In this document: positions 1,350 through 32,000 of the stretch, in pieces | Position numbering within the stretch: position 1 is the stretch's first letter | How the letters are laid out: each line of letters starts with the position of its first letter | From: Alkalilimnicola ehrlichii MLHE-1 | GTDB lineage: Bacteria; Pseudomonadota; Gammaproteobacteria; Nitrococcales; Halorhodospiraceae | Length of the DNA: 32,000 nt | Assembly: GCF_000014785.1 (NCBI RefSeq) | Contig: NC_008340.1 | Coordinates: 270,001-302,000, forward strand | Direction: 5' to 3' | Program-made: the position numbers and the translations under genes | Notes under the pieces: model-generated | Database searches by the model: none | Told to the model about the DNA's origin: nothing | The model's input: the letters and a program-made list of their open reading frames with translations, nothing else

Positions 1350-3839
1350 CTAGTTCGCTACTTTCTCCTTCCTCCCTTCCGGGTTGATCTCGCGCAGAAC
1401 GTCGTTCGCCGCACGGAGGGCGAGGTAGAGGTCGTCCCGATGCCCCACTGCGTAGACGGGTCGACCGGCCACCCAGTCGGCAAACTGTGACAGCGTTCGG
1501 CCATCCAGCCCGGTACCATCGTGGCGGGCCGTCTCCGGCAGCAGGTGGCCCAAGGCCTCGCGCAGGCCCAGCTGGCGGGCGATGCCCTGATCCCCGCTCG
1601 CGTCGTCGGGGGCGGCAATAAGGATCGCGGCCACCTCAACGGCATCGCGCGCCGGCGTGCCGGTCGCCGGCACCAGGTGGCCACGCTGGCCGAACCACCA
1701 AAGATGGGCAGTGGCGTCCGGCCCGTCGGGCTTTTCACCGGGCCGTGGGGTTGGCGCCGGCGTCGATGATCGTGGCTGGCGGAGCGGCAGCCCGAGGGAG
1801 CGGGCCCGGCCGCTGCCTTCCAGCGCAATGGCCGCGCCGCCGCTGGCGGTCTGGCCGTTCTCCCGGGCCAGGGCGAGGGCCAGGGCATCATCGCCGGTTG
1901 TATCGCCGCGGCAGACCAGCAGGGCGGCACCGGGATGGGACGGGCCGGCCGGGACCAGGGCGCCGGTGATCGCAATCTCCCCGACGTCGGGGGTGCGCCG
2001 CAACAGCGTCCGGACAAGCCAGGGGCCCAGCTCCGCAAGCCGCAGGTGCTCGGCGTCCACCTCACCGGCGATCAGCACGGTGTAGCCACGGCGCGAGCGG
2101 GCGATGTCCACCTCCAAGGCCTCCGCACCCGGTTCCGGCACAGCCAGCGGGGCCAGCAGCGGAAACAGCCGCCTTGCCGCCGGCTCGCTCCAAGTGCGCA
2201 GGTGCAATGCCTGCTGCCCGAGCCGCAGTGCCATGGCGTGGGGGGCATCGGCGGTGCGGGGTGCCGCGGCGCCAGAGGCGGAGGCTACGCCGTCCGCGGG
2301 TGTCTCGCAGGGCGCACCATCCGGGCATTGCACCAGCAGCCCCGCCTCGGCCCAGTCCGCCAGGGCCTCCCACACCTGTTGCTGTAGGGTGTTCGGGTCC
2401 GCGCCCTGCAGGGTCTGGTGCAATGCCGCGACGATCTCGTCCGGGCGCTTACCCATGGTGGCGTGCAGCCAGATGAGCGCGGCGGTGGGGTTGGTGGCGT
2501 AGAGCGCCTGGCGGGCCTCGCCGTAGAGGAGCAGTTCATCCCCGGAGATCACCTCCGCGACCTGCCAACGCTGCAGGGTGGGCCGGGCAACCGGTTGGGT
2601 GCTCAGGCCGTCGGCCAGCGCCACATCGGCGAAGCGGGGCAGCGGGAAACAGGAGAGGTAATGCGCCGCATCCGCGGCCGGCAGTATGCGCTGAAAGCCG
2701 CCGGCGTGGCGCGCCTCCCGCTCGGCCGCCGCGCGCCACTGGCCCACCGGGTCGTCGCCGGCGCCCTCGGCGGTGGGTTTCGGGTCGTTGAGGCCGGTCA
2801 TGGTTACCACGTCGGTCACCAGCCGGCGCTTGATGGCCGCCTCGATGTCGCCGCCATCCTCCGGCGCGGCGCACACGCCCAGCGACGGGCTGAGGTTGCA
2901 TTCCAGCAGCCAGGGCCGGATCCGGTCATCCACCAGGCAGTCCATGCCGATCAGCTCGTAGCAGCCCGCCTGATCCGCACCATGGTGCTGCAACTGGGCC
3001 CGCAGGTTCTCCCGTGCCGCGATCGTGGTCAGGGCCACAATGTCGCGCAACCGGTCGAACAGCGCCTCATCGTCGTGGCCCTGCTCGCGCAGCCAGTGGC
3101 GGTAACGCTGCAGGTCCACGAACACCACCGGGTCGTCGGCGGCCTCATTGAGCGCGTTGACGTCGGGGTTGGTGAGGTGGACGTAGGGGTTGTCGGCATC
3201 CTCCAGGCTGTAGGGCATGGAGGCGAGCTTGGCGAACCCCTGCTCATAGAGGTAGACCCGCAGCGGCTCCACCGAGGTGATCAGCACATAGAGGCGCAGG
3301 ACGTACTTGCGCTGGTTCATCAGGTGCGGCCGGCTGAGGTATTCCTGCACCATCCAGCGCTCGCCAGTGGGTACCTCGGCGACGTCCGAGACCAGCGAGA
3401 TGTCCTTGCCCCGTGCGGCGTTCTTGGGCTTGAGCAGCCAGCGCTTGTCGGGATGGGCGGCGGCGTGGGCCTGCAGGGCGTGGTAGTCGCCCGGCATGCT
3501 GAAGACCTGGGGCACGAAATCGGCCCGCGCCAGGTCCGGGTGCCCGGCGGGACGGCTGGCCACCAGGCGGCGCTGCAGGGCGTGCACGGTCTGGTAGAGG
3601 CGGCTTTTGACCGTCAGGCAGTTGTTGCCGGGGATGTGGTTGACGGTACGCCCGGGGCCGGTCTGCCGGAAGACCTCTTTGGGCGGCATGCCGGTGTACC
3701 AGCAGGCATCCCAGTGCTCGGCGTCCCCGGGTTGCCACAGGGCCGGGTCGAGCGCCTGCTCGAAAAAAATATCCTGCTCACGTTTACGCTTGCCGCCCAG
3801 CCAGAAACGGCGGGGTGCTGGGTTGGCGGATTCGGTCAT
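1350..3839 (-). CDS. 829-aa multidomain protein: N-terminal tubulin-tyrosine-ligase-family ATP-grasp domain, central PqqD-like (RRE) domain, C-terminal HprK-related kinase-like domain
   Basis: ATG at 3839 with GGGGGA 5 nt upstream. TTL motifs: WLLKPKNAARGKDISLV, MVQEYLSRPHL, RKYVLRLYVLITSVEPLRVYLYEQGFAKLA, HLTNPDVN, YELIGMDCLVDDRIRPWLLECNLSPSLG. The PqqD-like stretch is aa 421-505 (LYATNPTAALIWLHATMGKRPDEIVAALHQ...VWEALADWAEAGLLV). The C-terminal 290 aa resemble HprK-related kinases, but the P-loop position reads GDTTGDDA. Confidence 0.8.
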   Translation of the reverse strand: MTESANPAPRRFWLGGKRKREQDIFFEQALDPALWQPGDAEHWDACWYTGMPPKEVFRQTGPGRTVNHIPGNNCLTVKSRLYQTVHALQRRLVASRPAGHPDLARADFVPQVFSMPGDYHALQAHAAAHPDKRWLLKPKNAARGKDISLVSDVAEVPTGERWMVQEYLSRPHLMNQRKYVLRLYVLITSVEPLRVYLYEQGFAKLASMPYSLEDADNPYVHLTNPDVNALNEAADDPVVFVDLQRYRHWLREQGHDDEALFDRLRDIVALTTIAARENLRAQLQHHGADQAGCYELIGMDCLVDDRIRPWLLECNLSPSLGVCAAPEDGGDIEAAIKRRLVTDVVTMTGLNDPKPTAEGAGDDPVGQWRAAAEREARHAGGFQRILPAADAAHYLSCFPLPRFADVALADGLSTQPVARPTLQRWQVAEVISGDELLLYGEARQALYATNPTAALIWLHATMGKRPDEIVAALHQTLQGADPNTLQQQVWEALADWAEAGLLVQCPDGAPCETPADGVASASGAAAPRTADAPHAMALRLGQQALHLRTWSEPAARRLFPLLAPLAVPEPGAEALEVDIARSRRGYTVLIAGEVDAEHLRLAELGPWLVRTLLRRTPDVGEIAITGALVPAGPSHPGAALLVCRGDTTGDDALALALARENGQTASGGAAIALEGSGRARSLGLPLRQPRSSTPAPTPRPGEKPDGPDATAHLWWFGQRGHLVPATGTPARDAVEVAAILIAAPDDASGDQGIARQLGLREALGHLLPETARHDGTGLDGRTLSQFADWVAGRPVYAVGHRDDLYLALRAANDVLREINPEGRKEKVAN

Positions 3840-5918: not shown

Positions 5919-7226
5919 TTACCAGGCGGGTTCGCGGGTCAATCCGCCGGCGCGGGGCAAGGCCTGGTTGGCCCGGCCGTGCACGGAGACCGTGCGCAGC
6001 CTGGAGTCGCCGCTGCCACCGGCAGAGTACATGATCATATCGCCGTTGGGGGCGAATACGGGCGACTCATCCCACGGGCCGTCGGTGAGCACCCGGGTGC
6101 GGTCGCTCTCCAGATCGTGCACGGCGATGCGGAAGCTGCCGTTGTGCCGGTGCACCATGGCGATCCGCCGGCCGTCGGGGGACCAATTGGGCCGGGCGTT
6201 GTAGTCCCCGTCGAAGGTCACCCGTTCCACCCCGCCCGGGCCGTTCACCGCCAGGGTGTAGACCTGCGGCCGTCCGCCGCGGTCGGAGGTGAAGGCGATC
6301 CGCTCCCCGTCGGGTGAGAAAGTCGGCTCGGTGTCGATGGCCCAGTGGTCGGTCAGCCGGCGGACATGACCGTCGTCCAGCCGCAGCAGGTAGATGTTGG
6401 CACGCCCGTCCCGGGAGAGGGTGACGGCCAGGTGTCGCCCGTCCGGTGACCAGGCGGGGGCGCTGTTAATGCCGCGGAAGCTGGCGATCCGGTCGCGCTG
6501 GCCACTGCGCAGATTCTGGACGTAGATCTCGGAGCGACCGCCCTCGAAGGAGACGTAGGCCAAGCGGTCGCGCTCTGGCGACCAGGCCGGTGACATGATC
6601 GGCTGGCGCGACTCGAGGATCTCCCGCGGGCGCTGGCCGTCGGCATCGGCCACCATCAGCCGGTGGATGCGTTGGTCGTTGCGCTCTTCCACCTGGACAT
6701 AGGCGATCTGGGTGCCGAACACCCCGGGCAGACCCACTACCTCCTCGAAGACGATGTCGCTGATGGCGTGGGCCAGGCTGCGCAGGTTGTCCGGGTGCAG
6801 GCGGTAGCGCCGGCCCTCGATGCGGTTGCCGCGGAAGACGTCCAGCAGCTCGAAGGTGACCGAGACCCGGTGGCCGTCCATCTCCATCCGCCCGGTAACC
6901 AGGTAGTCCATGCCCAGGGCGCGCCAAGCCGAGAAGCGGGTGTCGTCCAGGCCGGCGGGGCGGGCCACCAGCTCCTCCCGGGGCAGGACCTCGAAGCGGC
7001 CGCTGCGCGCCAGGTTGTCGCTGATCACCCGGGCGATGTCCTGATCGGGGGTGGGAATTTCGCCGGTGACCGCAAAGGGGATGACGGCCACGGGCATGGC
7101 GCCCTCCTGGCCACCGATCACGTCGATGATGTCGTCGGCGTGGGCGGCCTGCAGCCCCACCAGCAGGAGGGCCAGGGTGCAAACGGTCTGGTAAAGGCGG
7201 CGCATGGCGTTACCTGTGCTGATCAT
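5919..7226 (-). CDS. tolB: Tol-Pal system beta-propeller protein TolB
   Basis: Signal peptide MRRLYQTVCTLALLLVGLQAAHA. Repeated propeller motifs are present (PAWSPDG, PTFSPDG, PNWSPDG). The start at 7226 overlaps the tolA stop as ATGA; an alternative start is at 7205. Confidence 0.9.
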   Translation of the reverse strand: MISTGNAMRRLYQTVCTLALLLVGLQAAHADDIIDVIGGQEGAMPVAVIPFAVTGEIPTPDQDIARVISDNLARSGRFEVLPREELVARPAGLDDTRFSAWRALGMDYLVTGRMEMDGHRVSVTFELLDVFRGNRIEGRRYRLHPDNLRSLAHAISDIVFEEVVGLPGVFGTQIAYVQVEERNDQRIHRLMVADADGQRPREILESRQPIMSPAWSPERDRLAYVSFEGGRSEIYVQNLRSGQRDRIASFRGINSAPAWSPDGRHLAVTLSRDGRANIYLLRLDDGHVRRLTDHWAIDTEPTFSPDGERIAFTSDRGGRPQVYTLAVNGPGGVERVTFDGDYNARPNWSPDGRRIAMVHRHNGSFRIAVHDLESDRTRVLTDGPWDESPVFAPNGDMIMYSAGGSGDSRLRTVSVHGRANQALPRAGGLTREPAW

Positions 7227-8224
7227 CGGTCCGGCGCGAAGCGGTAGGTGCGTTCGCGCAGCTCTCGGTTGGCGTCGTCGTCATCGGGCATGGGCAGCGG
7301 CGCGGCGCGGTAAGCGGCCCGGACCACCGAGGCGTCAAAGGCGTCGTTGCCGCTGCCGCGGGTGATGGTCACCTCCTGCACGTCGCCGTGGCGGGACAGG
7401 CGGATGCGCACCAGGGCCTCCAGGCCGGCCGGGGTGCCGCTGGGGCGAACCCAGGCGCGGCGCAGCTCGGCGCTGATCCGGCCGGCGTAACTGCCCACCG
7501 TCTGTTGCACCTCGCGGGCGCGGCGCTCGGCCTCGATGGCCTCCTGGCGGGCGCGCTCCTCGGCCTGGCGCTGGCGCTCCAGCTCCTCCTGCCGGCGGCG
7601 TTCTTCCTCCTGACGCTGCCGTTCTGCCTCTTCCTGGCGCCGACGTTCTTCCTCCTGGCGCTGACGCTCCAGCTCTTCCTGGCGCCGGCGCTCTTCCTCC
7701 TGGCGCTGACGTTCTTCCTCTTCCTGACGCCGCCGTTCTTCCTCCTGGCGCCGGCGTTCCTCTTCCTCCTGGCGCCGCTGTTCCTCCTCGCGGCGCAGTC
7801 GCTCGGCCTCTTCCTGCTGGCGGCGCTCCTCTTCGCGCCGGGCCTGCTCCTCGGCCTCGCGCCGCGCCTGTTCGGCCTCCTCGCGCCGCTGCTGTTCCAG
7901 CCGCTCCTGCTCGCGGCGCTCCGCCTCCCGCCGGCGTTGTTCCTCCTCCTGGCGCCGGCGTTCCTCCTCGGCCTGACGGCGGGCCTCTTCCTCGGCGGCC
8001 TCGCGCTCGCGGATGGGGGCCATGGCCACCTCTTCATCCACCGCGAACGCCTCGATAATCTCGCCGTCGCCGGCATGCTCCTCGGTGGCCTGGGGCAGCA
8101 GCGAGACATTGGCGAAAAAGAGCCCGAAGATGAGTACGTGCAGCAGGATCGAGGCCGCAACGTAACGGCCCGGCCGGACCGGGGGTGTCTGTCGCGCCCC
8201 CTTGGGCCGCTCAGGAGGCGTCAT
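7223..8224 (-). CDS. tolA: TolA with a greatly expanded Glu/Arg/Gln helical domain II
   Basis: N-terminal TM segment YVAASILLHVLIFGLFFANV, about 170 aa of EERRRQEE-type repeats, and a TolA-like C-terminal domain (GRISAELRRAWVRP...GNDAFDASVVRAAYRAAPLP). It lies between tolR and tolB. Confidence 0.9.
   Translation of the reverse strand: MTPPERPKGARQTPPVRPGRYVAASILLHVLIFGLFFANVSLLPQATEEHAGDGEIIEAFAVDEEVAMAPIREREAAEEEARRQAEEERRRQEEEQRRREAERREQERLEQQRREEAEQARREAEEQARREEERRQQEEAERLRREEEQRRQEEEERRRQEEERRRQEEEERQRQEEERRRQEELERQRQEEERRRQEEAERQRQEEERRRQEELERQRQAEERARQEAIEAERRAREVQQTVGSYAGRISAELRRAWVRPSGTPAGLEALVRIRLSRHGDVQEVTITRGSGNDAFDASVVRAAYRAAPLPMPDDDDANRELRERTYRFAPDR
7505..8011 (-). repeat. Charged coding repeat region inside tolA
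   Basis: Reiterated cctcctggcgc(c/t)g(a/g)cg(c/t)tc-type units encode QEEEERRRQEEERRRQEEEERQRQEEERRRQEELERQRQ and similar. Confidence 0.8.
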
Positions 8225-8225
8225 G

Positions 8226-8675
8226 TCAGCCCTCGCCGTCCGGCCTGCGGGTCATCAGCCCGACACCCGCCGCCCCGGCATCGCGTAGCCGCACCATCAC
8301 CGATACCACGTCGCCGTAGGGCACGTTGCTGTCGCCGTTGACCAGCACCCGCTTGTCGGGGCTGTCCGTCAATATGGCCATGACCGCACGGGAAAGTTCA
8401 CCCCTGTCCAGCGGTGCTTCCGGATCGTCGGCCATGTTCAGGTAGTAGCGACCGTCGGCATCCACCGAAACGATCAGCGGCTCCTGGGGCGGGTCCTGCT
8501 CGGCCTGGGCGTCCACCTGGGGCAGGTCCACGTCCACGCCCTGGTAGAGCAGCGGTGCGGTGACCATGAAGATGACCAGCAGCACCAGCATGACGTCGAT
8601 GTAGGGGACCACGTTGATCTCCGACATCGGCCGTCGCCGGGTACGGTGGCCCTGGGGGTTGGCGGAATAGGGCAC
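8226..8675 (-). CDS. tolR: TolR (ExbD/TolR family)
   Basis: RTRRRPMSEINVVPYIDVMLVLLVIFMVTAPLL matches the E. coli TolR N-terminus pattern (SEINIVPLLDVLLVLLLIFM). It lies between tolQ and tolA. Confidence 0.92.
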   Translation of the reverse strand: MPYSANPQGHRTRRRPMSEINVVPYIDVMLVLLVIFMVTAPLLYQGVDVDLPQVDAQAEQDPPQEPLIVSVDADGRYYLNMADDPEAPLDRGELSRAVMAILTDSPDKRVLVNGDSNVPYGDVVSVMVRLRDAGAAGVGLMTRRPDGEG

Positions 8676-8687
8676 GGCGCGACCTCC

Positions 8688-9395
8688 TCAGTGGCCTGCC
8701 TGGCCGGCGGCGAATTCCGTGGGCCCATGGGTGTTGCGTTGCAGGATGCTGGTGAACTCCTCCACGAAGGTCTCGTAGCGGTTGATCAGCCGTTCCACCT
8801 GGTTGGCGTACTGGTTGTAGGCGATGACCGCCGGAATGGCCGCAAACAGCCCCAGCGCGGTGGCGATAAGGGCCTCGGCGATGCCCGGGGCCACGGTGGC
8901 GAGGGTGGCCTGCTGCATCTCACCCAGGGCGCGGAAGCTGTTCATGATGCCCCAGACGGTACCGAACAGACCCACATAGGGGCTCACCGACCCGACGGTG
9001 GCCAGGAAGGGGAGGTGGCGTTCCAAGTCGTCCATCTCCCGGGAGAGGGAAACCCGCATGGCCCGGTGCGAGGCCTCCACCATGGTACCGGGGGCGGTGC
9101 CCGTCTGCTTGCGCATCCGGGTGAACTCCTTGAACCCGGAGCGGAAGATCCGCTCCAGCCCGCCGTGATCCGGGTGGGGCTCGCGGATCTGGCGGTAGAT
9201 CTCGGCCAGATTACCGCCGGACCAGAAACGCTCCTCGAAGTGCACCGCCCCGTCGTGGGCCTTGCGGATGGTGGCGCGCTTGAGAAAAATCAGCGCCCAG
9301 GAGCTGACCGAGGCCAGCACCAGAATCAGCATGACCAGCTGCACCAGCAGGCTGGCCTCGAGAACAAGATGAGTGATGGATAATTCGCCCGACAT
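8688..9395 (-). CDS. tolQ: TolQ (MotA/TolQ/ExbB proton channel)
   Basis: Three TM segments. Conserved motifs include LATVGSVSPYVGLFGTVWGIM and TLATVAPGIAEALIATALGLFAAIPAVIAYN. It is the first gene of the operon. Confidence 0.92.
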   Translation of the reverse strand: MSGELSITHLVLEASLLVQLVMLILVLASVSSWALIFLKRATIRKAHDGAVHFEERFWSGGNLAEIYRQIREPHPDHGGLERIFRSGFKEFTRMRKQTGTAPGTMVEASHRAMRVSLSREMDDLERHLPFLATVGSVSPYVGLFGTVWGIMNSFRALGEMQQATLATVAPGIAEALIATALGLFAAIPAVIAYNQYANQVERLINRYETFVEEFTSILQRNTHGPTEFAAGQAGH

Positions 9396-9558
9396 CAGCG
9401 CGCTCCGGTCGCGGCACCGCCCGTTGGATGGACCTTATGACAGCTCTAAGAAAGGGCGCGTAAGCCCATGGTTTGCAACGGGGACTAATGTAGCGGGAGC
9501 GGGGTCGGCGGGCAACCACCAAGGCTTAGGGGTAATGCGGGCGGCCGTCGCGCCCCGC

Positions 9559-9750
9559 CATCGGGAGGGGCGAAGGCTTTCCCCTCGTCATCGCGGGGGC
9601 CGAAGGCTTTCCCCTCGTCATCGCGAGGGCCGAAGGCCCGTGGCGATCCAGAGCGGTAGACTGCCACGTCGGCTTCGCCTCCTCGCAGTGACGGTGGGGG
9701 TGGGTCCGCGTTCGCAGTGACGGTGGGGGCGACCCTCGCGATGGCGGGGG
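9559..9750 (-). repeat. REP-like array B (same family as array A, opposite orientation): two half-units, one full unit and two degenerate ends
   Basis: cccctcgtcatcgcg(g/a)gggccgaaggc occurs twice. It is followed by the full unit ...ccgtggcgatccagagcggtagactgccacgtcggcttcgcctcctcgcagtgacgg, which is the reverse complement of the array A/C unit. Confidence 0.9.
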
Positions 9751-9763
9751 ACGCCGGTAAGGC

Positions 9764-12094
9764 CTACACGTCTTCCTCGTCCTCGTAGCCGGAGTAGTCC
9801 CGCTCCTCGTCGTGGGTGGCCTCCGGTTCGGCCATCGTCGCCTCCACGGCCGCCAGGGCGCTCATGTTGACGATCGCCCGCACGGTGGAGGAGGGCGTCA
9901 GGATGTGCGCCGGTCGCGCCGAGCCGAGCAGGATGGGCCCCACCGAGACGCCGTCGGTGGTCACCTTCAGCAGGTTGAAGGCGATATTGGCCGCGTCCAG
10001 GGTGGGCATGACCAGCAGGTTGGCCTGCCCCTTGAGCTCATTGTTGGGGAAGATGCGCTTGCGGATCTCCTCCGAGACCGCGGCATCGCCGTGCATCTCG
10101 CCCTCCACGTCCAGGCCGGGGTCGGCGTCGCGGATCAGCTGCAGGGCGTCCCGCATCTTCCGGGCGCTCTCGGCGTTGGAGGTGCCAAAGCTGGAGTGCG
10201 ATAGCAGGGCCACCTTGGGGGTAATGCCGAAGCGTCGGACCTCGTCGGCGGCCAGGGTGGTCATCTCGGCGATCTGATGGGCGTTGGGGTCGTGGTTGAC
10301 GTAGGTGTCCACGATAAAGAACGTGCCCTTGGGCAGGATGAGCACGTTCATCGCCGCCATGTTGCGCACCCCCGCCCGGCGCCCGATCACATTTTCGATG
10401 TGCCCTATTTGCCGATGGTAACGGCCCACACTGCCGCCGACGAGCGCGTCCGCCTCGCCGCGCCGGACCATCAGTGCGCCGATCACCGTGGTCCGGGTGC
10501 GCACGATGGTGCGGGCCCGGGCCGGGGTGACACCGCGCCGCTCCATGATGGAGTGGTAGAGCTGCCAGTACTCGCGGTAGCGGGGATCGTCCTCCGGGTC
10601 GGCCAGATCCACGTTCTTGCCGATCTCCAGGCGCAGGCCCAGGCGCTTGATGCGCATCTCCACCACTTTGCGCCGGCCGACCAGGATGGGCTTGGCCAGG
10701 CCGTCGTCCACCACCACCTGTACGGCACGCAGTACCCGTTCCTCCTCGCCATCGGTGTAGACCACCCGCTTGGGGTTGGTGCGCGCCCGCTCGAAGATGG
10801 GCTTCATCACCAGGCCCGATTGGAAGACGAACTGCGACAGCTCCATGTGGTAGGCGTCGAAGTCCTCGATGGGCCGGGTGGCCACGCCGCTCTCCGTGGC
10901 CGCCCTGGCCACCGCCGGGGCGATCTTCAGGATCAAGCGCGGGTCAAAGGGCCGGGGGATGAGGTACTCCGGGCCGAACCGCAATGACTTGCCGCCATAG
11001 GCGGCGGTGACCACGTCGGAGGATTCGGCCATGGCCAGATCGGCAATGGCATAGACGGCGGCCAGCTTCATCTCCTCGTTGATGGTGGTGGCACCCACGT
11101 CCAGCGCCCCCCGGAAGATGAAGGGGAAGCAGAGCACGTTGTTGACCTGGTTGGGGTAGTCCGACCGACCGGTGGCGATGATGGCGTCCGGGCGCGCCTC
11201 CTTGGCCAGCTCCGGCAGGATCTCCGGCACCGGGTTGGCCAGCGCCATGATGATGGGACTGTCGGCCATCTGCTTGACCATCGCCTGGCTGAGCACCCCG
11301 GGTGCGGACAGCCCGAGGAAGATGTCGGCACCCTCGATGACCTCCTTCATGGTGCGGGCGGAGGTCTCGCGGGCGTAGCCCTCCTTGCGCTCGTCCATGT
11401 ACTCCTTGCGGCCCTTGTAGACGATGCCTTTGGAGTCGGCGACGAAGATGTTCTCCTTGTTCATGCCCATGGACACCAGGATGTCCAGGCAGGCGATGGC
11501 CGCCGCGCCGGCACCGGAGCAACAAAGCTTCACGTCCTCGATCTTCTTGTCCACCACCCGCAGGCCGTTGAGCACCGCCGCGGCGGTGATAATGGCGGTG
11601 CCGTGCTGGTCGTCGTGGAAGACCGGGATGTTCATCCGCTTGCGCAGCGCGGACTCCACCTGGAAGCACTCCGGGGCCTTGATGTCCTCCAGGTTGATGC
11701 CGCCGAAGGTGGGCTCCAGGCTGGCGATGATCTCGGTGAGCTTGTCCGGGTCCTGCTCATTGATCTCGATGTCGAAGACATCAATGCCGGCGAACTTCTT
11801 GAACAGGACGCCCTTGCCCTCCATCACCGGCTTGGAGGCCAGCGGGCCGATATTGCCCAGGCCGAGCACGGCGGTGCCGTTGGTGATCACCGCCACCATA
11901 TTGCCCCGCGCGGTGTACTTTGAAGCCGCCTGCGGATCGTTGACGATCTCCTCGCAGGCCGCCGCCACGCCCGGCGAGTAGGCCAGCGCCAGGTCACGCT
12001 GGTTGGCCAGCGGCTTGGTGGGCACGACCTGCAGCTTACCGGGGCGGGGGAATTCGTGGTATTCGAGGGCGTTGTCGCGGAAGTTGTCGGACAT
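9764..12094 (-). CDS. maeB: NADP-dependent malic enzyme (malic enzyme domain plus PTA-like C-terminal domain)
   Basis: Start [21 protein letters not shown] at 12094 with GGAGA upstream. Motifs include [29 protein letters not shown] and [10 protein letters not shown]. The C-terminal half of about 330 aa is phosphotransacetylase-like. The ORF-track start at 12217 adds 41 implausible residues. Confidence 0.92.
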
Positions 12095-12361
12095 GGTGTC
12101 TCCGAGCTTGTTGTCCTGGTTCTGGGGTCGGATCGAGGGTCGGGTGCTGATTTGATTTATTATTACCGCCGTCGGGTGTTTCCGGGGCGCACAAGAACAG
12201 TGCAACCGGGACCGCACAGGCCGCGTCAGGGCAGGGCGTCAATCCGTGCGCCGGCGGTCATTAATAATCGACTGCACCTTCCAATTATAGAGCCCTATGG
12301 CCCGGTCTGGCCACCGTGGTCAGACAACCTTTCCAGGGCGCAGCATAGGATCGTGGGTCCG

Positions 12362-13052
12362 CTACCGCCGCGCCAGCCTGTCGCGAAGCCAGTCCCGGAT
12401 AATGGCCCCCGGGTTGGCGAGTGATGAGCGCCCCTCGGCTGTTTCCTTGATCACGGCAAGGACCTGTGCATCCTGTCGTTTCGGGCGCCGCTTGCCCCAT
12501 GCGGTCAGCCCGGCATCCAGGGCCTCGGTAAACCCGCGGCTCCAGGCCTGCAGTTCGTCGCTGGTCAGATCGGCGGGCAGCAGCACCAGTCGGGGCTCTC
12601 CGGAGAGCCCGCCAAGAGGCTCCTGCAATTCCTCCAGGCGTTGCATGAGCCCGTTCCGGCGGGGCGAGCTCAGCGCGATGGTAGAGCACCAGCAGGCACT
12701 CGATGCCCGGCGCCGTGGCCTTGTCGGCGTTGAGCGCGACCGCCCGGTCTGCCGCCTCGAGGAAGTCCTCGCCGCGCCGCTTGCCGTCCTCGGCCATACG
12801 ACGGGCCTCGTCCAGGAGCAGGTGCAGCAGCTGGGCAGGGGCCAACCTGGGATCGGCCGATTCCCCGGAGGCGGTCATCACCTCCTTCACGAGCTGCCGG
12901 GCTACGCCGCGGTGGGTGACCAGGCGCCGGACATGGTCGGTAATGGTATCGGGCTGGCGCAAAAGCACGTTGTCGTCCGGTCGCGCGAGCAGGGCCAATA
13001 CATTGTCCATTTCGCGGGCCCAGTGGGGACGGTGTGTTTTCTTGCGGCTCAT
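12362..13052 (-). pseudogene. Hypothetical protein gene split by a 1-nt frameshift (or sequencing error) at a G4/C4 run
   Basis: The frame from ATG 13052 reads plausibly up to ...IECLLVLYHRAELAPPE and then becomes R/G/A/P-rich nonsense down to 12285. A second frame reads plausibly from MQRLEELQEPLGGLSGEPRLVLLPADLTSDELQAWSRGF... to a stop at 12362. Removing one base from gggg (12661-12664) joins them as ...HRAELARRNGLMQRLEEL... Confidence 0.55.
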
Positions 13053-13176
13053 AGTGGCTGGCTATCGTTTGTGGCAATGAATAATGTGGCGATGAACCAA
13101 TCGGGCCTGCGACAGGGCGTCCGCCGGCCCAATCAGCGTAACCCGAAGCCGGTGAGGAGGTAGCCGTGGAGGGTGA

Positions 13177-14214
<1,038 letters not shown>

Positions 14215-14476
14215 GGAGGCTGAAAGAACGCTTTGGCCGGCCTCACCCCGACGTGCCCGCACGCCGGCCAGAGCGCAGCCGAAAACCTTAAGCAATGATG
14301 TGGGAACTGACGTTTTTCGGCAGTCCGTAGCGCCTGGTAGGGGCAGTGACCCTTTTTTGAGAGGGGAAAAGGCGACGCCTTAGGCATTGGCCTCGCCGGA
14401 CGGCGAGATAATGTTGGTGTTTAAAAACAGTGAGTTGGAGGGCGCTTGGCTGAATGGAGCCTGGCCGCGCCTGAGT

Positions 14477-26152: not shown

Positions 26153-27913
<1,761 letters not shown>

Positions 27914-28187
27914 TCGTCCTCCTTAGAATTAGTGTCGGGTCGAGTTGCGGACGGGCTTTTGGCCCGCCTTCCGCGCGGTGGCTTTCTATCAGGTGCGGTG
28001 CAACTCGGGGACAGCCTGAATATTCTGGACCACGCCCAGAGGGCGATCAAGCAGATAGGCGGCGCGAGCCCTCGCTGGGCCCCCAAGGGCGGGGGCTTTC
28101 CTTTGGTCTTTTGAGCGGATGCGTCGGGGCTGGTCGCCGTGTTGCGACTTCCGCCCCGGCACTATGCGTCCAAGCCGGTCGTCTCCG

Positions 28188-29054
28188 CTACAGGCCGTAC
28201 TTGGGCGGGAAGTAGGACAGCGGGGGTTCGCGGTTCAGCCAGCCCTTGATCGGATCGCTGTCATTGGGGCAGTAAGGCCGGTCCTCGGGCTTGAGATGGC
28301 ACCGACCGTAAGTCACTCGATTATTTACATAGCCGTGCTCGGACCCGCGCACGACCCATTTCCATGAGCCCTCGACGTCGTCCTGTCGCCAGAGATTGCC
28401 GGCCAGGTTATTCATGGCCGGGGCGTAGCCCTGCTCGGCGGCCTTGACGTCTTCTGCTCGCGGGGGCCAGTCGCCGGAGCGTTCCTGAATACGACTCGCC
28501 CACAGGTCTTGTGCCTGGGGAAGGCCGGCTGCGGCGGCGTTGCGCAACCAGTTTCGACCCTCTTCCACGTCCTCCAGCGCAACATAGACTGAATACAGTG
28601 CAAGCATGGCATCCGGATCCCCTTCCTCGGCTTTGGGGAGTTCCTGGTCCAGAGCCATTTTTGCCCAGGAGTCATGCTCTTCGGGGCAGATGTCGGCCAG
28701 CTCGCAGATCATGCCCCAATTCAGACGAAGCATGGCGTAGGGATCCCCGCCCTCCGCCGCGCGGTGGTACCAGTCGATGGCCTCGCGGGACATGCCACGG
28801 TCCATAAAGCGGTAGATCTCGCCAAGGGTGTACATGGACTCTACATCGCCTGCCTCGGCGGCCTTTTCGAGGTGGTGGATGGCCACGCTTCGCCACCGGA
28901 TGCCGTACAAGCGCATGCCTTCTTCCTTCGCCTGCCGGGCTTCTTCATTTAGTTCACGTGCCGTGTCGGCGCTGCTGAGCGCGCTAGTGGACCCCACTGC
29001 GATCAGCAGCGCCATGAATCCGGTCAGTGGCCATCTGACAGTGCTTGAGTTCAT
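28188..29054 (-). CDS. Secreted Sel1-like repeat protein (paralogue 1, 288 aa)
   Basis: Signal peptide MNSSTVRWPLTGFMALLIAVGSTSALS. Sel1-type repeats are present (AAEAGDVESMYTLGEIY, WYHRAAEGGDPYAMLRL, AAAAGLPQAQ, AAEQGYAPAMNNLAGNL). GGAG lies 9 nt before the ATG. Confidence 0.85.
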   Translation of the reverse strand: MNSSTVRWPLTGFMALLIAVGSTSALSSADTARELNEEARQAKEEGMRLYGIRWRSVAIHHLEKAAEAGDVESMYTLGEIYRFMDRGMSREAIDWYHRAAEGGDPYAMLRLNWGMICELADICPEEHDSWAKMALDQELPKAEEGDPDAMLALYSVYVALEDVEEGRNWLRNAAAAGLPQAQDLWASRIQERSGDWPPRAEDVKAAEQGYAPAMNNLAGNLWRQDDVEGSWKWVVRGSEHGYVNNRVTYGRCHLKPEDRPYCPNDSDPIKGWLNREPPLSYFPPKYGL

Positions 29055-29108
29055 AGTGCAATCTCCGGCATTGGATGCCTGATCCGCCTTCTTTTAGTGC
29101 GCTGGTTC

Positions 29109-30740
29109 CTAGTCCACCGGAGGAAGGTGTCTGGAAAGATTGTGAACAGCCCTGTCGTACCGCATGCGATCTTCCCGGCCCGCCCCGGTAGGCGATGGAA
29201 TCGGCATAAACCCATCCAGTCTTTGTCGATTCTCGGCATAGGCTTTGGCCCTGGATTCGTCGGTAGGCTGTCCGTCTCGGGCCATGCGCACCACGGCCTT
29301 TTCAAACAACTTCTGCGCCGGGTTCGGGTGCTCTGCGGAGAACTCGCGCCGGGGCCCGTAGACGCCGGCCAGGACGCCGGAGACAATCCATTGCAGGCAG
29401 TTGAGGATCGCCCGCTGGTGGAATCCTCGTGCTTGCTCCACGTTGTATTGGTTCTCCTCCACCTCGAACGCCTGCGGCTGACTGGTCAGGGTATAAAGCA
29501 GCGGCCCGAGGGCCTCGGGCGGCAGTTGGCGCACCCAGGCGCGCAGTTGCTGGACGCGCTTGTGGTGTTCCCGACTGGCCTCCGGGTCATACCGGAGGTT
29601 GGGCGGTTCCTCGGCGGCGAGTTCGTAGGCGATCCGGCTGGCCATGTCCCGCTCCCGGGTGAACCATTCGATCAGCTGGCGCAGGCGGTGGGTGCCGCGC
29701 AGCAGGAGCAGGGCGGGTTCGACCAGGGTGATGGCGGCGAGGTAGGCCAGGCGGCTCATCTCCTCGAAGGCGTCTTCGTCGATCCAGTCGACGCGCTCGT
29801 AGCCGACCTCCACCAGCGCCTGGTGCATCATGGCGAGCCAGAGGTCGAGGTGGCGGGTGTCGAGGGCCAGGCGCACGCTGCCCCCGCCGCCGACGCCGAG
29901 CACCAGGCGCAGGGAGGCGTGCAGCACGAAGCGGCCGTTGTGCAGGCCGAGCCGGAAGGCGGCCTCGCCGCCGACCCCGACGCGTACTTCGGGGTTGATC
30001 TCGGCACGGGTCAGGGTTTTCCACTGGCGGGCCTCGTCCCGGGCGTAGCCCGCGCGGTCGATCTCGGCCATGGCCTGGTAGCGCGGCAGGCGCGCGAGCA
30101 GGTTCGCCGGCGGCTGCCAGAGCAGACGGCAGTGGTTGTGGCCGGCCAGTCCGGTGCCGGCGAAGGCCTCCAGTCGGGCATCGACGCCGTCGCGCTCCAC
30201 GGGGGCGAGGCCGTTGACGGCGAGACGCCCCCCGGCGGTGTCGAGCCCGACGCCGCCGCCCAGCGCCACGGAGACGGCGGCATGGCCGTGGAGCACGGGC
30301 TCGATGTGCAGGCAGTAGCGGCCGATGGAGCGGGCATCGGGGTGATCGGCATCAAGCCCGAAGGGGACGATGACCGGCTCCGCCTTGGAGGGGTCGGGCA
30401 GCTGGATGGGCGCGAGGGCGATCTCGCCACGACCGAAATCGAAGGCGTGCTGGCCGCGCAATCGCAACACGACCGGCAAGCCGTGCTGCCCGCGGGCCAC
30501 GGTGGCGGTGATGCCCAGCTCGTCGAAGGCAAGGCTGGGGGCCACGCTGACCGTCCGGCCGCCGGCGTTGCCCCCGGTGTCGATGCCGGCGGTGTCCTGG
30601 TAGCGGGCGGTCAGGCCGATGCGGGCGCCGGTTCCGGGGGCCTCGGTCTCCGGCTCGCTCTGCTCCTCCGACTCGGGCCGGCGGCAGCCCCGCCAGGAGC
30701 GCCAACCAGTCAGGGTGGTGACCTGCCAAAACAGGAGCAT
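29109..30740 (-). CDS. Hypothetical 543-aa protein, family not recognised, no signal peptide
   Basis: This long minus-strand ORF has a balanced composition (W, Y, F, K, N present), whereas the overlapping plus ORF is V/G/H/Q-rich antisense shadow. The N-terminal half is Gly-rich with alternating beta-like segments, and the C-terminal half looks helical. The 3' region is duplicated at 31817-32000. Confidence 0.7.
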   Translation of the reverse strand: MLLFWQVTTLTGWRSWRGCRRPESEEQSEPETEAPGTGARIGLTARYQDTAGIDTGGNAGGRTVSVAPSLAFDELGITATVARGQHGLPVVLRLRGQHAFDFGRGEIALAPIQLPDPSKAEPVIVPFGLDADHPDARSIGRYCLHIEPVLHGHAAVSVALGGGVGLDTAGGRLAVNGLAPVERDGVDARLEAFAGTGLAGHNHCRLLWQPPANLLARLPRYQAMAEIDRAGYARDEARQWKTLTRAEINPEVRVGVGGEAAFRLGLHNGRFVLHASLRLVLGVGGGGSVRLALDTRHLDLWLAMMHQALVEVGYERVDWIDEDAFEEMSRLAYLAAITLVEPALLLLRGTHRLRQLIEWFTRERDMASRIAYELAAEEPPNLRYDPEASREHHKRVQQLRAWVRQLPPEALGPLLYTLTSQPQAFEVEENQYNVEQARGFHQRAILNCLQWIVSGVLAGVYGPRREFSAEHPNPAQKLFEKAVVRMARDGQPTDESRAKAYAENRQRLDGFMPIPSPTGAGREDRMRYDRAVHNLSRHLPPVD

Positions 30741-30744
30741 TTCG

Positions 30745-31758
30745 CTACAGGCCGTACTTGGGCGGGAAGTAGGACAGTGGGGGCTCGCGGTTCAGCCAGT
30801 CCTCGGCGAGTTCTTCGGCTTCGGCGATTTCTTCGTCGGATAGGCGCTCCCCGTATCGCTCCAGAAGGCTCTCGGCCGTGCTAGCTCGTGTTTCTTCATA
30901 CAGCGCGTGCAATATGGCCCACCCTTTGACGGGATCGGGTTCGTCCGGGTAGCAGTAATCAATCAACTCCCCTGGGGCGAGGTGACAAAATCCGTAGGTA
31001 ATGCGCTTCCGAATATGCCCACGCTCCGAACCTTCAACGACCCAGTTCCACGCCGCTTCCATTTTTTCTTGCCGAATTAGATTCCCCACGAGGTTGTATA
31101 TGGCCGGGGCATAGCCCTGCTCGGCGGCCTTGCGGAACCAGGGCTCGGCGGCTTCGACGTCTTTCAGCTGCGGGGGCCATTCGCCGGAGCGTTCCTGGGT
31201 GATAGTTCCCAGCCAATCTTGGGCCTCCGGGTTTCCGGCCTCGGCGGCACGTTCCAGCCAGTCTAGGGCCGTGCGGGGTTCCCCGAGCATGTTGTAGACA
31301 TCAAATAGGGTCGACATGGCGATCGGGTCACCATGTTCGGCCTTGGGTAGTTCCTGCTCGAGAGCCTTGTCCACCCACGCTTCATATTTCTCGGGGCAAA
31401 TGTCAGCCAACTTGCAGATCATGCCGTGTTCGAGCCGGAGCATGGCATGGGGATCCCCGCCCTGCGCCGCGCGGTGGTACCAGTCGATGGCCTCGCGGGA
31501 CATGCCGCGATCCAGTAGCCGGTTCGCCTCGCCCAGGTAGTAGATGGCCTCGACATCACCGGCCCCGGCCGCTTCTTCCAGCGGCGGCTGCATGTCGATC
31601 CATTCATGCAGGCCCCACAGGCGCATTCCTTCTTCTTTAGCCTGTTGCTGCTCGGCATTGAGCTTCAGGGATGTTTTGTCTTCTCCATCGTTGGGTTGAG
31701 CCGTGCCGGCCCATAAGCCAACGATGAGGATGAACACTAGAATTTTTTTGCGGGGCAT
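30745..31758 (-). CDS. Secreted Sel1-like repeat protein (paralogue 2, 337 aa)
   Basis: Start MPRKKILVFILIVGLWAGTAQP at 31758. It is collinear with paralogue 1 (QAKEEGMRLWG, DRGMSREAIDWYHRAAQGGDPHAMLRL, MICKLADICPE, identical C-terminus WLNREPPLSYFPPKYGL). It carries an extra acidic insertion of about 43 aa near the C-terminus. Confidence 0.85.
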   Translation of the reverse strand: MPRKKILVFILIVGLWAGTAQPNDGEDKTSLKLNAEQQQAKEEGMRLWGLHEWIDMQPPLEEAAGAGDVEAIYYLGEANRLLDRGMSREAIDWYHRAAQGGDPHAMLRLEHGMICKLADICPEKYEAWVDKALEQELPKAEHGDPIAMSTLFDVYNMLGEPRTALDWLERAAEAGNPEAQDWLGTITQERSGEWPPQLKDVEAAEPWFRKAAEQGYAPAIYNLVGNLIRQEKMEAAWNWVVEGSERGHIRKRITYGFCHLAPGELIDYCYPDEPDPVKGWAILHALYEETRASTAESLLERYGERLSDEEIAEAEELAEDWLNREPPLSYFPPKYGL

Positions 31759-31816
31759 TGCCAAGACCTTTGTTAACCCTGAGCAAACTGGCTCTTGTCG
31801 CCGCACGCTTGCCTTT

Positions 31817-32000
31817 CTACTGAATGTGACGGGAAAGCCAGCCGGCATTCTGTCTGTATTTCCATTGACGGTCCTGTTGCTCCAGCTGTCCGCTGCCTGC
31901 TGACATGAAATTGTCCAGCCGCCCTCGGTTCTCGGCATACGCATCGGCCCTCGATTCGTCGGTAGGCTGTCCGTCTCGGGCCATGCGCACCACGGCCTTT
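31817..32000 (-). CDS. 3' end of a second copy of the unknown large protein (partial; continues past the right edge)
   Basis: It translates as KAVVRMARDGQPTDESRADAYAENRGRLDNFM..., compared with KAVVRMARDGQPTDESRAKAYAENRQRLDGFM... in 29109-30740. Positions 31953-31999 are identical to 29254-29300. The last 28 or so codons diverge; stop at 31819-31817. Confidence 0.75.
   Translation of the reverse strand, partial: KAVVRMARDGQPTDESRADAYAENRGRLDNFMSAGSGQLEQQDRQWKYRQNAGWLSRHIQ

Follow-up and report, generated by a model that had tools for sequence, protein, structure and literature searches.

A probable type VI secretion cargo effector-immunity island with an orphan module in Alkalilimnicola ehrlichii MLHE-1, of the TseVF-TsiVF type

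Introduction

What is the role of a locus in which genes for large proteins without a recognisable family alternate with genes for small secreted Sel1-repeat proteins? Such a locus lies at one end of a 32,000-nucleotide (nt) stretch of Alkalilimnicola ehrlichii MLHE-1 (NC_008340.1, positions 270,001 to 302,000; hereafter the window), with all four features on the minus strand between positions 28188 and 32000. Along that strand the order is the 3' end of a large gene, a first Sel1 gene (product Sel1-2), a 543-amino-acid (aa) open reading frame (ORF) and a second Sel1 gene (product Sel1-1). An earlier sequence-only reading had described this order, in which we found all of the ORFs, and had taken it for an effector-immunity array possibly linked to a type VI secretion system (T6SS). 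Here, we present a computational analysis of the locus, its protein families and its relatives in other genomes. We consider that the locus is probably a T6SS cargo effector-immunity island with an orphan module. The locus belongs to an already known kind, the TseVF-TsiVF type, here in a form that lacks LysM and is detached from vgrG.

The TseVF-TsiVF pair of Vibrio fluvialis (VflT6SS2) is an effector-immunity pair published in 2026 in Curr Res Microb Sci (PMC12861213). TseVF has 1197 aa with a LysM domain at residues 2-49 and is encoded in the order hcp - vgrG - tap - tseVF - tsiVF, and TsiVF, of 333 aa, combines a signal peptide of 18 residues with a TPR-like domain (PMC12861213). The effector acts in the periplasm, where it binds phosphatidylethanolamine/phosphatidylcholine liposomes and causes leakage, leaving peptidoglycan intact (PMC12861213). 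It was assayed with Sec-targeted (periplasmic) constructs, and LysM was dispensable for toxicity; residues 965-1141 are the region sufficient for killing, and within it W1056 and W1091 are important (PMC12861213).

Homology to a demonstrated effector-immunity pair

Vibrio effectors of the LysM subfamily carry the motif W-x14-E-x4-R-x14-W, which is the published TseVF spacing of W1056, E1071, R1076 and W1091. A search with one of these effectors retrieved P0189, a protein of 1196 aa that represents a cluster of 94 members under the name V. furnissii. P0189 is a protein which has all four residues at exactly the published TseVF numbering and whose locus reads hcp - vgrG - DUF4123 (176 aa) - effector - overlapping 333-aa gene. 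Because of the exact residue numbering and the gene order, P0189 was taken to be TseVF or a near-identical orthologue. The profile of the window family aligned with residues 694-1146 of P0189 (hhalign Prob 97.0, E 9e-11) and with an effector of Vibrio sp. Hep-1b-8 (hhalign Prob 97.6, E 2.7e-12). In a library-wide search the same profile was matched by P0081 and P0095 with E-values of 8e-19 and 9e-16; both carry W...E....R...W with a first loop one residue longer than that of TseVF, and this motif is the reason for placing them in a TseVF-like subgroup. In the alignments, TseVF W1056 corresponds to W1011 of the full-length window protein and to W451 of the orphan ORF, a position that is nearly invariant across the family, and TseVF E1071 and R1076 correspond to the FEKAVVRM segment of the window proteins.

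The immunity side gave a parallel result. The profile of the immunity proteins aligned with the 333-aa protein of the P0189 locus, with the Cys pair included (hhalign Prob 97.5, E 5.7e-12), and the Sel1 protein matched the immunity protein of Vibrio sp. Hep-1b-8 in BLASTP (E 4e-7). Judged by these profile and pairwise alignments, the C-terminal half of the predicted effector and the Sel1 protein are remote homologues of TseVF and TsiVF. The effector and the immunity protein have been inherited together across the distance that separates TseVF from the window family, and the newly described type is extended to LysM-less members in haloalkaliphiles.

Two further Vibrio proteins were considered. 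V. parahaemolyticus VP1388 was set aside as a LysM relative, as the literature gives it as a MIX I co-effector and does not list LysM. V. alginolyticus Va03175 (LysM, pore-forming, two redundant immunity genes) may belong to the family, and we make no claim on it.

Variation among the Vibrio loci was also observed. At an hcp-vgrG locus downstream of glgB, two genomes carry different effector-immunity alleles: that of V. furnissii CIP 102972 (5989-10762 of the locus) consists of a 1227-aa effector and a 368-aa Sel1-like lipoprotein, and that of the P0189 genome (7001-11589 of the locus) consists of the TseVF-type 1196-aa effector and the 333-aa immunity gene. In Vibrio sp. Hep-1b-8 (7144-10272 of the locus), one TseVF-like effector is followed by three tandem immunity paralogues (334, 333 and 332 aa).

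Genomic context of the family

A delivery route is indicated directly by the genes that surround the homologues. Halomonas sp. I1 has, in this order, hcp, vgrG, DUF4123, effector (1081 aa), Sel1 (331 aa), a 358-aa truncated effector and a further Sel1 (330 aa), and this module is followed by vipA, vipB, tssE, tssF, tssG and an FHA gene. One metagenome contig carries the 3' end of vgrG, DUF4123, a 71%-identical orthologue of the effector, Sel1 and a 117-aa effector remnant, and the Vibrio loci, found in a genome-contig scan made with a Vibrionaceae-only alignment, read hcp - vgrG - DUF4123 - LysM effector followed by one to three immunity genes. On account of this context, which we regard as decisive, the large proteins are read as T6SS cargo effectors, and it is this context together with the homology to TseVF-TsiVF that bears out the earlier suggestion of an effector-immunity array with a possible T6SS link.

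The module occupies three unrelated chromosomal contexts in three genomes and is therefore accessory, not core; conservation as single-copy core genes, named in the sequence-only reading as an outcome that would speak against it, was not seen among the five close relatives described below. This distribution also bears on the idea that the genes have nothing to do with antagonism between bacteria and encode, for example, a structural or envelope protein with a periplasmic chaperone. The setting of the locus among housekeeping genes (ksgA, icd, ppc and the pdh operon), with no secretion genes nearby, would suit such a role, which is nevertheless scarcely credible given the patchy distribution, the genome-to-genome change of context, the recurrent linkage to hcp, vgrG and DUF4123 in relatives and the homology to a demonstrated effector-immunity pair.

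For A. ehrlichii MLHE-1, the supplement of Boyer 2009 (PMC2660368) lists a complete T6SS locus. Outside the window, MLHE-1 also has Mlg_0040-0043, where 299-, 1099- and 443-aa genes lie beside a vgrG fragment (PMC2660368). These genes resemble another adaptor-effector-immunity set, and kinship to the window family is not claimed.

The effector family and its predicted toxin domain

The sequence-only reading had found no assignable motif in the large protein, and this held throughout our searches. Neither Pfam nor NCBIfam gave a match for the 543-aa ORF, for P0001 (the 97%-identical full-length protein of a second A. ehrlichii strain) or for P0005 (another full-length family member). When 17 relatives were added to these three, the Pfam/NCBIfam scan found LysM only and no curated model for the family. 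Searches of PDB sequences with two family profiles returned chance matches only, and a match to a housekeeping family, which the earlier reading had named as a counter-indication, was not found for the large protein.

A word-indexed search of 5.8 billion proteins yielded only five close relatives (one from Alkalilimnicola, three metagenomic and one from Halomonas sp. I1, 33% identical), and its repetition with a 66-sequence alignment added none to these. An exhaustive profile search reached 355 cluster representatives at E<=1e-3, including 62 at E<=1e-30, mostly of 1000-1300 aa and in many cases with an N-terminal LysM domain. The named members come from Halomonadaceae, Pseudomonas chlororaphis, Photobacterium, Vibrio, Shewanella and Motilimonas and are annotated throughout as 'hypothetical' or 'LysM domain-containing'. 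The analysis would provide a function for the family as a whole, with its 355 cluster representatives from Halomonadaceae, Pseudomonas, Vibrionaceae, Shewanella and others.

An AlphaFold model of the 543-aa ORF, built from 58 sequences, reached a predicted local distance difference test (pLDDT) score of 74 and a predicted template modelling (pTM) score of 0.74, is good from about residue 200, and consists of long beta-hairpins followed by a helical bundle. In the orphan, the beta-rich domain contains the long beta-hairpins together with turns rich in Gly (GVGGEAAF, GVGGGGS), and it carries FAG..AG and W.PP, two motifs of the family; at the nucleotide level it is about 97% identical to that of the full-length gene. 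A hydropathy scan placed a moderately hydrophobic helix (orphan residues 331-349) just upstream of the helical C-terminal region, which is where the TseVF paper predicts a transmembrane segment. A prediction for the full-length protein from a 6-sequence alignment was unusable (pLDDT 47.5). The structural check of the 543-aa protein that the sequence-only reading had proposed was run with Foldseek and gave no significant match in PDB or BFVD. The predicted fold, being without a PDB match, is a reasonable target for structure determination.

The 66-sequence alignment has five invariant residues in the C-terminal half (P683, G708, G720, W776 and W954); positions that are nearly invariant hold Gly, Pro, Ala, Leu or Trp. 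No His, Asp, Ser, Cys or Glu is conserved among the invariant columns of the family alignments, and neither the GxSxG motif of Tle1-4 nor the dual HxKxxxxD motif of Tle5 occurs in the full-length protein or in the orphan. The Gly, Pro and Trp invariants, the missing lipase motifs and the hydrophobic helix together favour a toxin that most likely acts non-enzymatically.

These observations bear directly on the alternative of an enzyme, such as a Tle-like phospholipase or a cell-wall hydrolase, in place of a membrane-inserting or pore-forming toxin. Sel1-like immunity proteins are found beside T6SS phospholipase D effectors: PldB/Tle5b of Pseudomonas aeruginosa is accompanied by the Sel1-like immunity proteins PA5086-5088. 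The Sel1/phospholipase analogy of the earlier reading finds no support in the large proteins themselves, which have neither lipase motif, and no hydrolase was matched in Pfam or NCBIfam. Sel1 genes also occur with putative lipases in Acinetobacter vgrG neighbourhoods (PMC6838775), and the peptidoglycan-binding LysM domain of many relatives might point to the cell wall; for TseVF, however, it was reported that peptidoglycan stayed intact, liposomes were bound, cell contents leaked and LysM was dispensable for toxicity (PMC12861213). Taking both sides together, and with the invariant columns free of His, Asp, Ser, Cys and Glu, we regard an enzyme as improbable.

The Sel1 immunity proteins

Both Sel1 proteins match the Sel1 repeat in Pfam, and Sel1-2 matches Sel1-repeat proteins in PDB with E-values down to 1e-19. 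What had been noticed by eye about this pair was borne out: the two proteins are 49% identical (BLASTP, E 6e-104), have four Cys each (at 117/123/252/262 and 115/121/258/269), end alike in WLNREPPLSYFPPKYGL, and begin with signal-peptide-like segments as expected of secreted proteins, that of Sel1-2 being MPRKKILVFILIVGLWAGTA. The Sel1 genes show features expected of genes for exported immunity proteins, lying directly downstream of the large genes and encoding products with signal-peptide-like N-termini and four Cys. Sel1-2 is proposed as the cognate periplasmic immunity protein of the full-length effector.

The gene for Sel1-1 has a GGAG 9 nt upstream of its ATG. Its product lacks an 8-aa and a 41-aa segment present in all four relatives compared, and for this reason some decay of Sel1-1 is possible.

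Proposed mechanism and the evidence that weighs against it

In the reading that we prefer, that of a T6SS cargo effector-immunity island, the 1100-aa protein would be the effector. Its N-terminal half is probably a loading domain; judging by how the genes are arranged in relatives, a DUF4123 (Tap/Tec) adaptor would recognise this half and load it onto the VgrG spike. The C-terminal half would be the toxin, made up of the beta-rich domain and then the helical bundle. Once delivered to the periplasm of a neighbouring cell, the toxin would most likely bind and permeabilise the inner membrane non-enzymatically, as the homology to TseVF suggests, and the secreted Sel1 protein encoded just downstream would serve as periplasmic immunity by binding and neutralising it.

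The 543-aa ORF and the second Sel1 gene would form an orphan module that holds alternative versions of three variable segments and a diverged immunity gene. Having no loading domain, the orphan is presumably not secretable. It most likely arose through duplication or displacement of the 3' half of the effector gene together with the immunity gene, and the module may now give immunity to a variant toxin and act as a partner of the active gene in gene conversion.

Several points weigh against this reading. The similarity to TseVF is detectable in the C-terminal halves only, at about 23-26% identity, with none detected between the N-terminal half of the window protein and that of TseVF, and W1091, important for killing by TseVF, aligns with Ala in the window proteins. 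Pfam scans of P0001 and P0005 were negative for LysM. Neither the window nor the 10 kb next to it contains a gene for VgrG, a DUF4123 protein, Hcp or PAAR, and directly upstream of the effector gene, where the closest relatives have the DUF4123 adaptor, are ksgA and a 51-aa ORF. This small ORF (6488-6643 of the second-strain locus) overlaps the effector start codon (ATGA) and has no family match; as a candidate DUF4123 remnant it was rejected, its best match covering 16 aa at a non-significant E of 0.4. The membrane mechanism is transferred from one paper on a distant relative, gene conversion has been inferred from two genomes, and for the window proteins themselves toxicity, secretion and neutralisation are predicted properties.

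Structure, variation and recombination of the orphan copy

The earlier description of a tandem duplication of a two-gene module stood in part. The Sel1 gene and the 3' half of the large gene are doubled, but there are not two whole large genes, as the upstream copy is complete at 1100 aa and the downstream copy is 5'-truncated. In BLASTP the orphan aligns with about residues 588-1100 of the full-length protein at 83% amino-acid identity over 528 aa, and it lacks the N-terminal ~590 residues. Its codons 1-19 derive from residues ~477-490 and are joined directly to ~588, so that about 97 codons have been lost through an internal deletion. The ATG of the orphan lies 4 nt after the stop codon of Sel1-2, and no obvious Shine-Dalgarno sequence was seen upstream of it when the DNA was read by eye.

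At the nucleotide level the orphan and the full-length gene are about 97% identical over some 1 kb and then form a mosaic, in which two patches and a tail of ~30 codons diverge. The identical 47-nt stretch reported earlier belongs to a longer match, in which 29215-29301 and 31914-32000 are 89% identical and the last 48 nt are identical, cut only by the window edge. The divergence over the last ~30 codons was likewise as reported, the two tails being unrelated in sequence. Outside their conserved 3' ends the Sel1 genes are roughly 50-85% identical. The variable DNA forms a contiguous cassette of toxin tail, spacer and most of the immunity gene. On one side the cassette borders on the conserved toxin core and on the other on the last 61 nt of the immunity gene, which are conserved too; this 61-nt Sel1 3' end is a possible downstream recombination anchor for the tail-plus-immunity cassette.

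Similar variation exists in relatives. Both forms of patch 1 occur among full-length orthologues elsewhere, most differences between the two Halomonas copies fall in the toxin tail and within residues 1 to ~90 of the immunity protein, and effector fragments lie downstream of the immunity genes in 6 of the 22 loci examined. The variable segments may form the specificity interface. An attempt to pair toxin-tail types with immunity N-terminal types was abandoned, as the pairings were opposite in Alkalilimnicola and Halomonas, and no claim on types is made.

The two sequenced A. ehrlichii strains show a sharp local hot spot of variation at locus positions 7500-9500 and 11000-12500. There are no differences in the flanking 3.3 kb (pdh, DUF502), compared with 97 nt in the effector gene, 28 nt in the orphan and 1-2 nt in the Sel1 genes. 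Within the blocks shared by effector and orphan, six sites are strain-specific yet common to both paralogues, and at 16 further sites, partly clustered at codons 688-703, the effector of the window strain has the base of the orphan. These shared strain-specific sites and orphan bases fit gene conversion between effector and orphan. Allelic exchange from outside is also required, because 63 of the 97 effector differences fall in codons 19-601, upstream of the compared blocks. In the window genome, the shared blocks of orphan and full-length gene differ at 19 synonymous and 12 non-synonymous sites, a ratio of non-synonymous to synonymous differences per site (pN/pS) of 0.23.

Another explanation of the orphan half (the 543-aa ORF and Sel1-1) is that it is decaying debris of a tandem duplication, with neither an immunity nor a donor function at present. 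The missing N-terminal residues, the deletion and the lack of an obvious ribosome-binding site are what decay would leave, as are the two segments lost from Sel1-1 and kept in four relatives, and equivalent fragments elsewhere form a series of progressively shorter pieces, from 358 aa with an internal deletion through 117 aa with the frame lost to remnants of 34-70 aa. Yet both ORFs are intact in both sequenced strains, the differences between orphan and full-length gene are mostly synonymous, Sel1-1 has a good GGAG site and differs by only 2 nt between strains, and the site patterns point to continuing exchange with the active gene. On this evidence we hold mere debris to be unlikely.

The same intact ORF with its signs of purifying selection could be turned to the opposite argument, that the 543-aa protein is toxic in its own right, as an independent effector carried by the full-length protein or by Hcp/VgrG or as a toxin inside the cell that is checked by Sel1-1. 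It keeps the entire region aligned with the TseVF fragment sufficient for killing, and, with 4 nt between the genes, its translation could be coupled to that of Sel1-2. It has no signal peptide, however, and lacks the family-conserved N-terminal half, which is the adaptor-binding part in DUF4123-dependent effectors (PMC13133200), and a cytoplasmic toxin-antitoxin pair does not fit, because TseVF is reported to act in the periplasm (PMC12861213) and Sel1-1 is exported. With equivalent fragments variably degraded in other genomes, a toxic role of the orphan ORF is very improbable.

Beyond the preferred reading of a cargo effector-immunity island with an orphan module, a more specific but rather unlikely proposal can be put forward tentatively. 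The orphan may be a working variation cassette of a cargo-type (non-Rhs) T6SS effector, in which gene conversion would shuffle the two patches and the tail, these segments and the N-terminal immunity repeats would set specificity, the toxin core and the 61-nt end would act as anchors, and the toxin domain would be a new non-enzymatic membrane-disrupting fold. The orphan copy and the hot spot between strains make the locus a compact natural case for the diversification of specificity in cargo effector-immunity pairs. The current understanding of T6SS is not overturned.

Comparison with known systems

With TseVF-TsiVF the locus shares a homologous C-terminal half of the effector, including the toxic-fragment region and the counterparts of W1056, E1071 and R1076, and a homologous immunity protein, about 333-337 aa long, that has Sel1/TPR-like repeats and a signal peptide. 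It also shares an effector size of about 1100-1200 aa and, in the relatives of the window family, the order hcp - vgrG - DUF4123 - effector - immunity. The window effector differs from TseVF in having no N-terminal LysM, Ala in place of W1091 and an N-terminal half that is not detectably similar. Further, the module here stands apart from vgrG and the adaptor gene, a truncated orphan and another immunity gene come after it, and the host is a haloalkaliphile of the Ectothiorhodospiraceae, not a Vibrio.

The BTH_I2691, VasX, Tke5 and Ptx2 effectors, a pore-forming family with MIX domains (PMC13133200), are likewise cargo effectors of about 1000 aa encoded after vgrG and a DUF4123 adaptor, with an N-terminal loading region, a membrane-targeting C-terminal part and action from the periplasm; in the BTH_I2691 family the DUF4123 adaptor is bound by a MIX domain at the N-terminus (PMC13133200). 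Immunity to these effectors comes from proteins of the inner membrane, in contrast to the soluble periplasmic Sel1 proteins predicted here. No match to NF041559 (BTH_I2691; NCBIfam E<=0.1) or to Pfam VasX_N/MIX (E<=1) was found in the scanned members of the window family, and the Foldseek comparison of the 543-aa model with PDB gave no significant match to any entry.

The orphan modules of Rhs and CdiA systems (Zhang et al. 2012, PMC3482391) resemble the present one in that a full toxin and its immunity gene are followed by a 5'-truncated homologous fragment with its own immunity gene, and in the evidence here for recombination between copies. The difference is that the orphan here carries the same toxin domain, ~97% identical, in which only the two patches and the ~30-residue tail differ, and that the effector is VgrG/adaptor cargo and not an Rhs, PAAR or CdiA fusion. 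The Sel1 proteins of the PldB type and of Acinetobacter are alike at the generic level of the repeat, being periplasmic, placed beside a T6SS effector and sometimes present as tandem paralogues; the window effector differs from PldB/Tle5b in having no phospholipase motif.

Anatomy of the locus

The window is base-for-base identical to part of GCA_049262545.1 (CP183314.1), as established by exact protein look-up and coordinate mapping, and the same locus is carried by a second A. ehrlichii strain, GCA_049200435.1. Past position 32000 are the pdh operon, DUF502, ksgA, the 51-aa ORF and the complete 1100-aa gene, in this order, and the effector-immunity locus sits between ksgA and icd. The inspection of this DNA recommended by the sequence-only reading recovered the rest of the upstream large gene, and no vgrG, PAAR or hcp within 10 kb. 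As the gene spacers are short (58, 4 and 54 nt) and no terminator-like site was seen between the minus-strand genes in the DNA of the locus, the layout is compatible with a single operon. The features are listed in Table 1.

Table 1. Features of the effector-immunity locus, in window coordinates.
Feature	Position	Strand	Evidence and remarks
3' end of the full-length 1100-aa effector gene	31817..32000	-	Last 60 codons and stop; remainder past the window edge; translation is the C-terminus of the 1100-aa protein
Sel1-repeat protein 2 (337 aa from MPRKK)	30745..31758	-	ORF and Pfam Sel1 match; separated from the effector stop by 58 nt
Orphan, 5'-truncated effector copy (543-aa ORF)	29109..30740	-	BLASTP against the 1100-aa protein, nucleotide identity profile, junction sequence
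Orphan junction segment (codons 1-19)	30684..30740	-	Secondary BLASTP alignment of TTLTGWRSWRGCRRPE with 477-TALTGWLTRRGCRRLE; from full-length residues ~477-490
Beta-rich domain of the orphan (about aa 100-293)	29862..30443	-	AlphaFold model m75fa4e5a7f3c, family alignments, identity profile
Helical C-terminal region of the orphan (about aa 350-535)	29136..29693	-	hhalign against P0189; aligns with the TseVF toxic region 965-1141
Variable patch 1 (orphan aa 373-399)	29544..29624	-	Orphan ELAAEEPPNLRYDPEASREHHKRVQQLRA, full-length TIVNDPQRDAIA
Variable patch 2 (orphan aa ~429-440), predicted beta-hairpin	29421..29456	-	Orphan ENQYNVEQARG, full-length IQRDGQKQVQRFGREQALV
Variable C-terminal tail of the orphan (aa 513-543)	29112..29204	-	Sequence unrelated to the tail of the full-length effector
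Sel1-repeat protein 1 (288 aa)	28188..29054	-	Immunity paralogue tied to the orphan; 54 nt downstream of it
Conserved 61-nt 3' end, Sel1 gene copy 1	28186..28246	.	95% identical to 30743-30803
Conserved 61-nt 3' end, Sel1 gene copy 2	30743..30803	.	Same repeat family

Other features of the window

The remainder of the window is housekeeping in character, with tol-pal, maeB, type IV pilins, an NtrC-type regulator, ppc and icd. Between 14000 and 20000 the G+C content is lower (0.56-0.61, against ~0.67 elsewhere) and the GC skew strongly positive; the genes there encode a pilin, GspH-like and other N-methyl minor pilins, a PilX_N protein and a Pol-beta-type nucleotidyltransferase, and the block probably represents a cluster of type IV pilus genes that is subject to horizontal exchange. 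At its edge, 12285-14295 (minus strand) holds two ORFs of 255 and 364 aa with no Pfam match. The isocitrate dehydrogenase ORF (26153-27913, minus strand, 586 aa) carries two fused CBS domains at its C-terminal end, an unusual architecture, and the public gene calls at this site give only a 124- or 174-aa CBS product in both strains. Finally, 1350-3839 (minus strand) encodes an 829-aa protein with tubulin-tyrosine-ligase/ATP-grasp and PqqD-like (peptide-recognition) domains, which could be a peptide-modifying enzyme.

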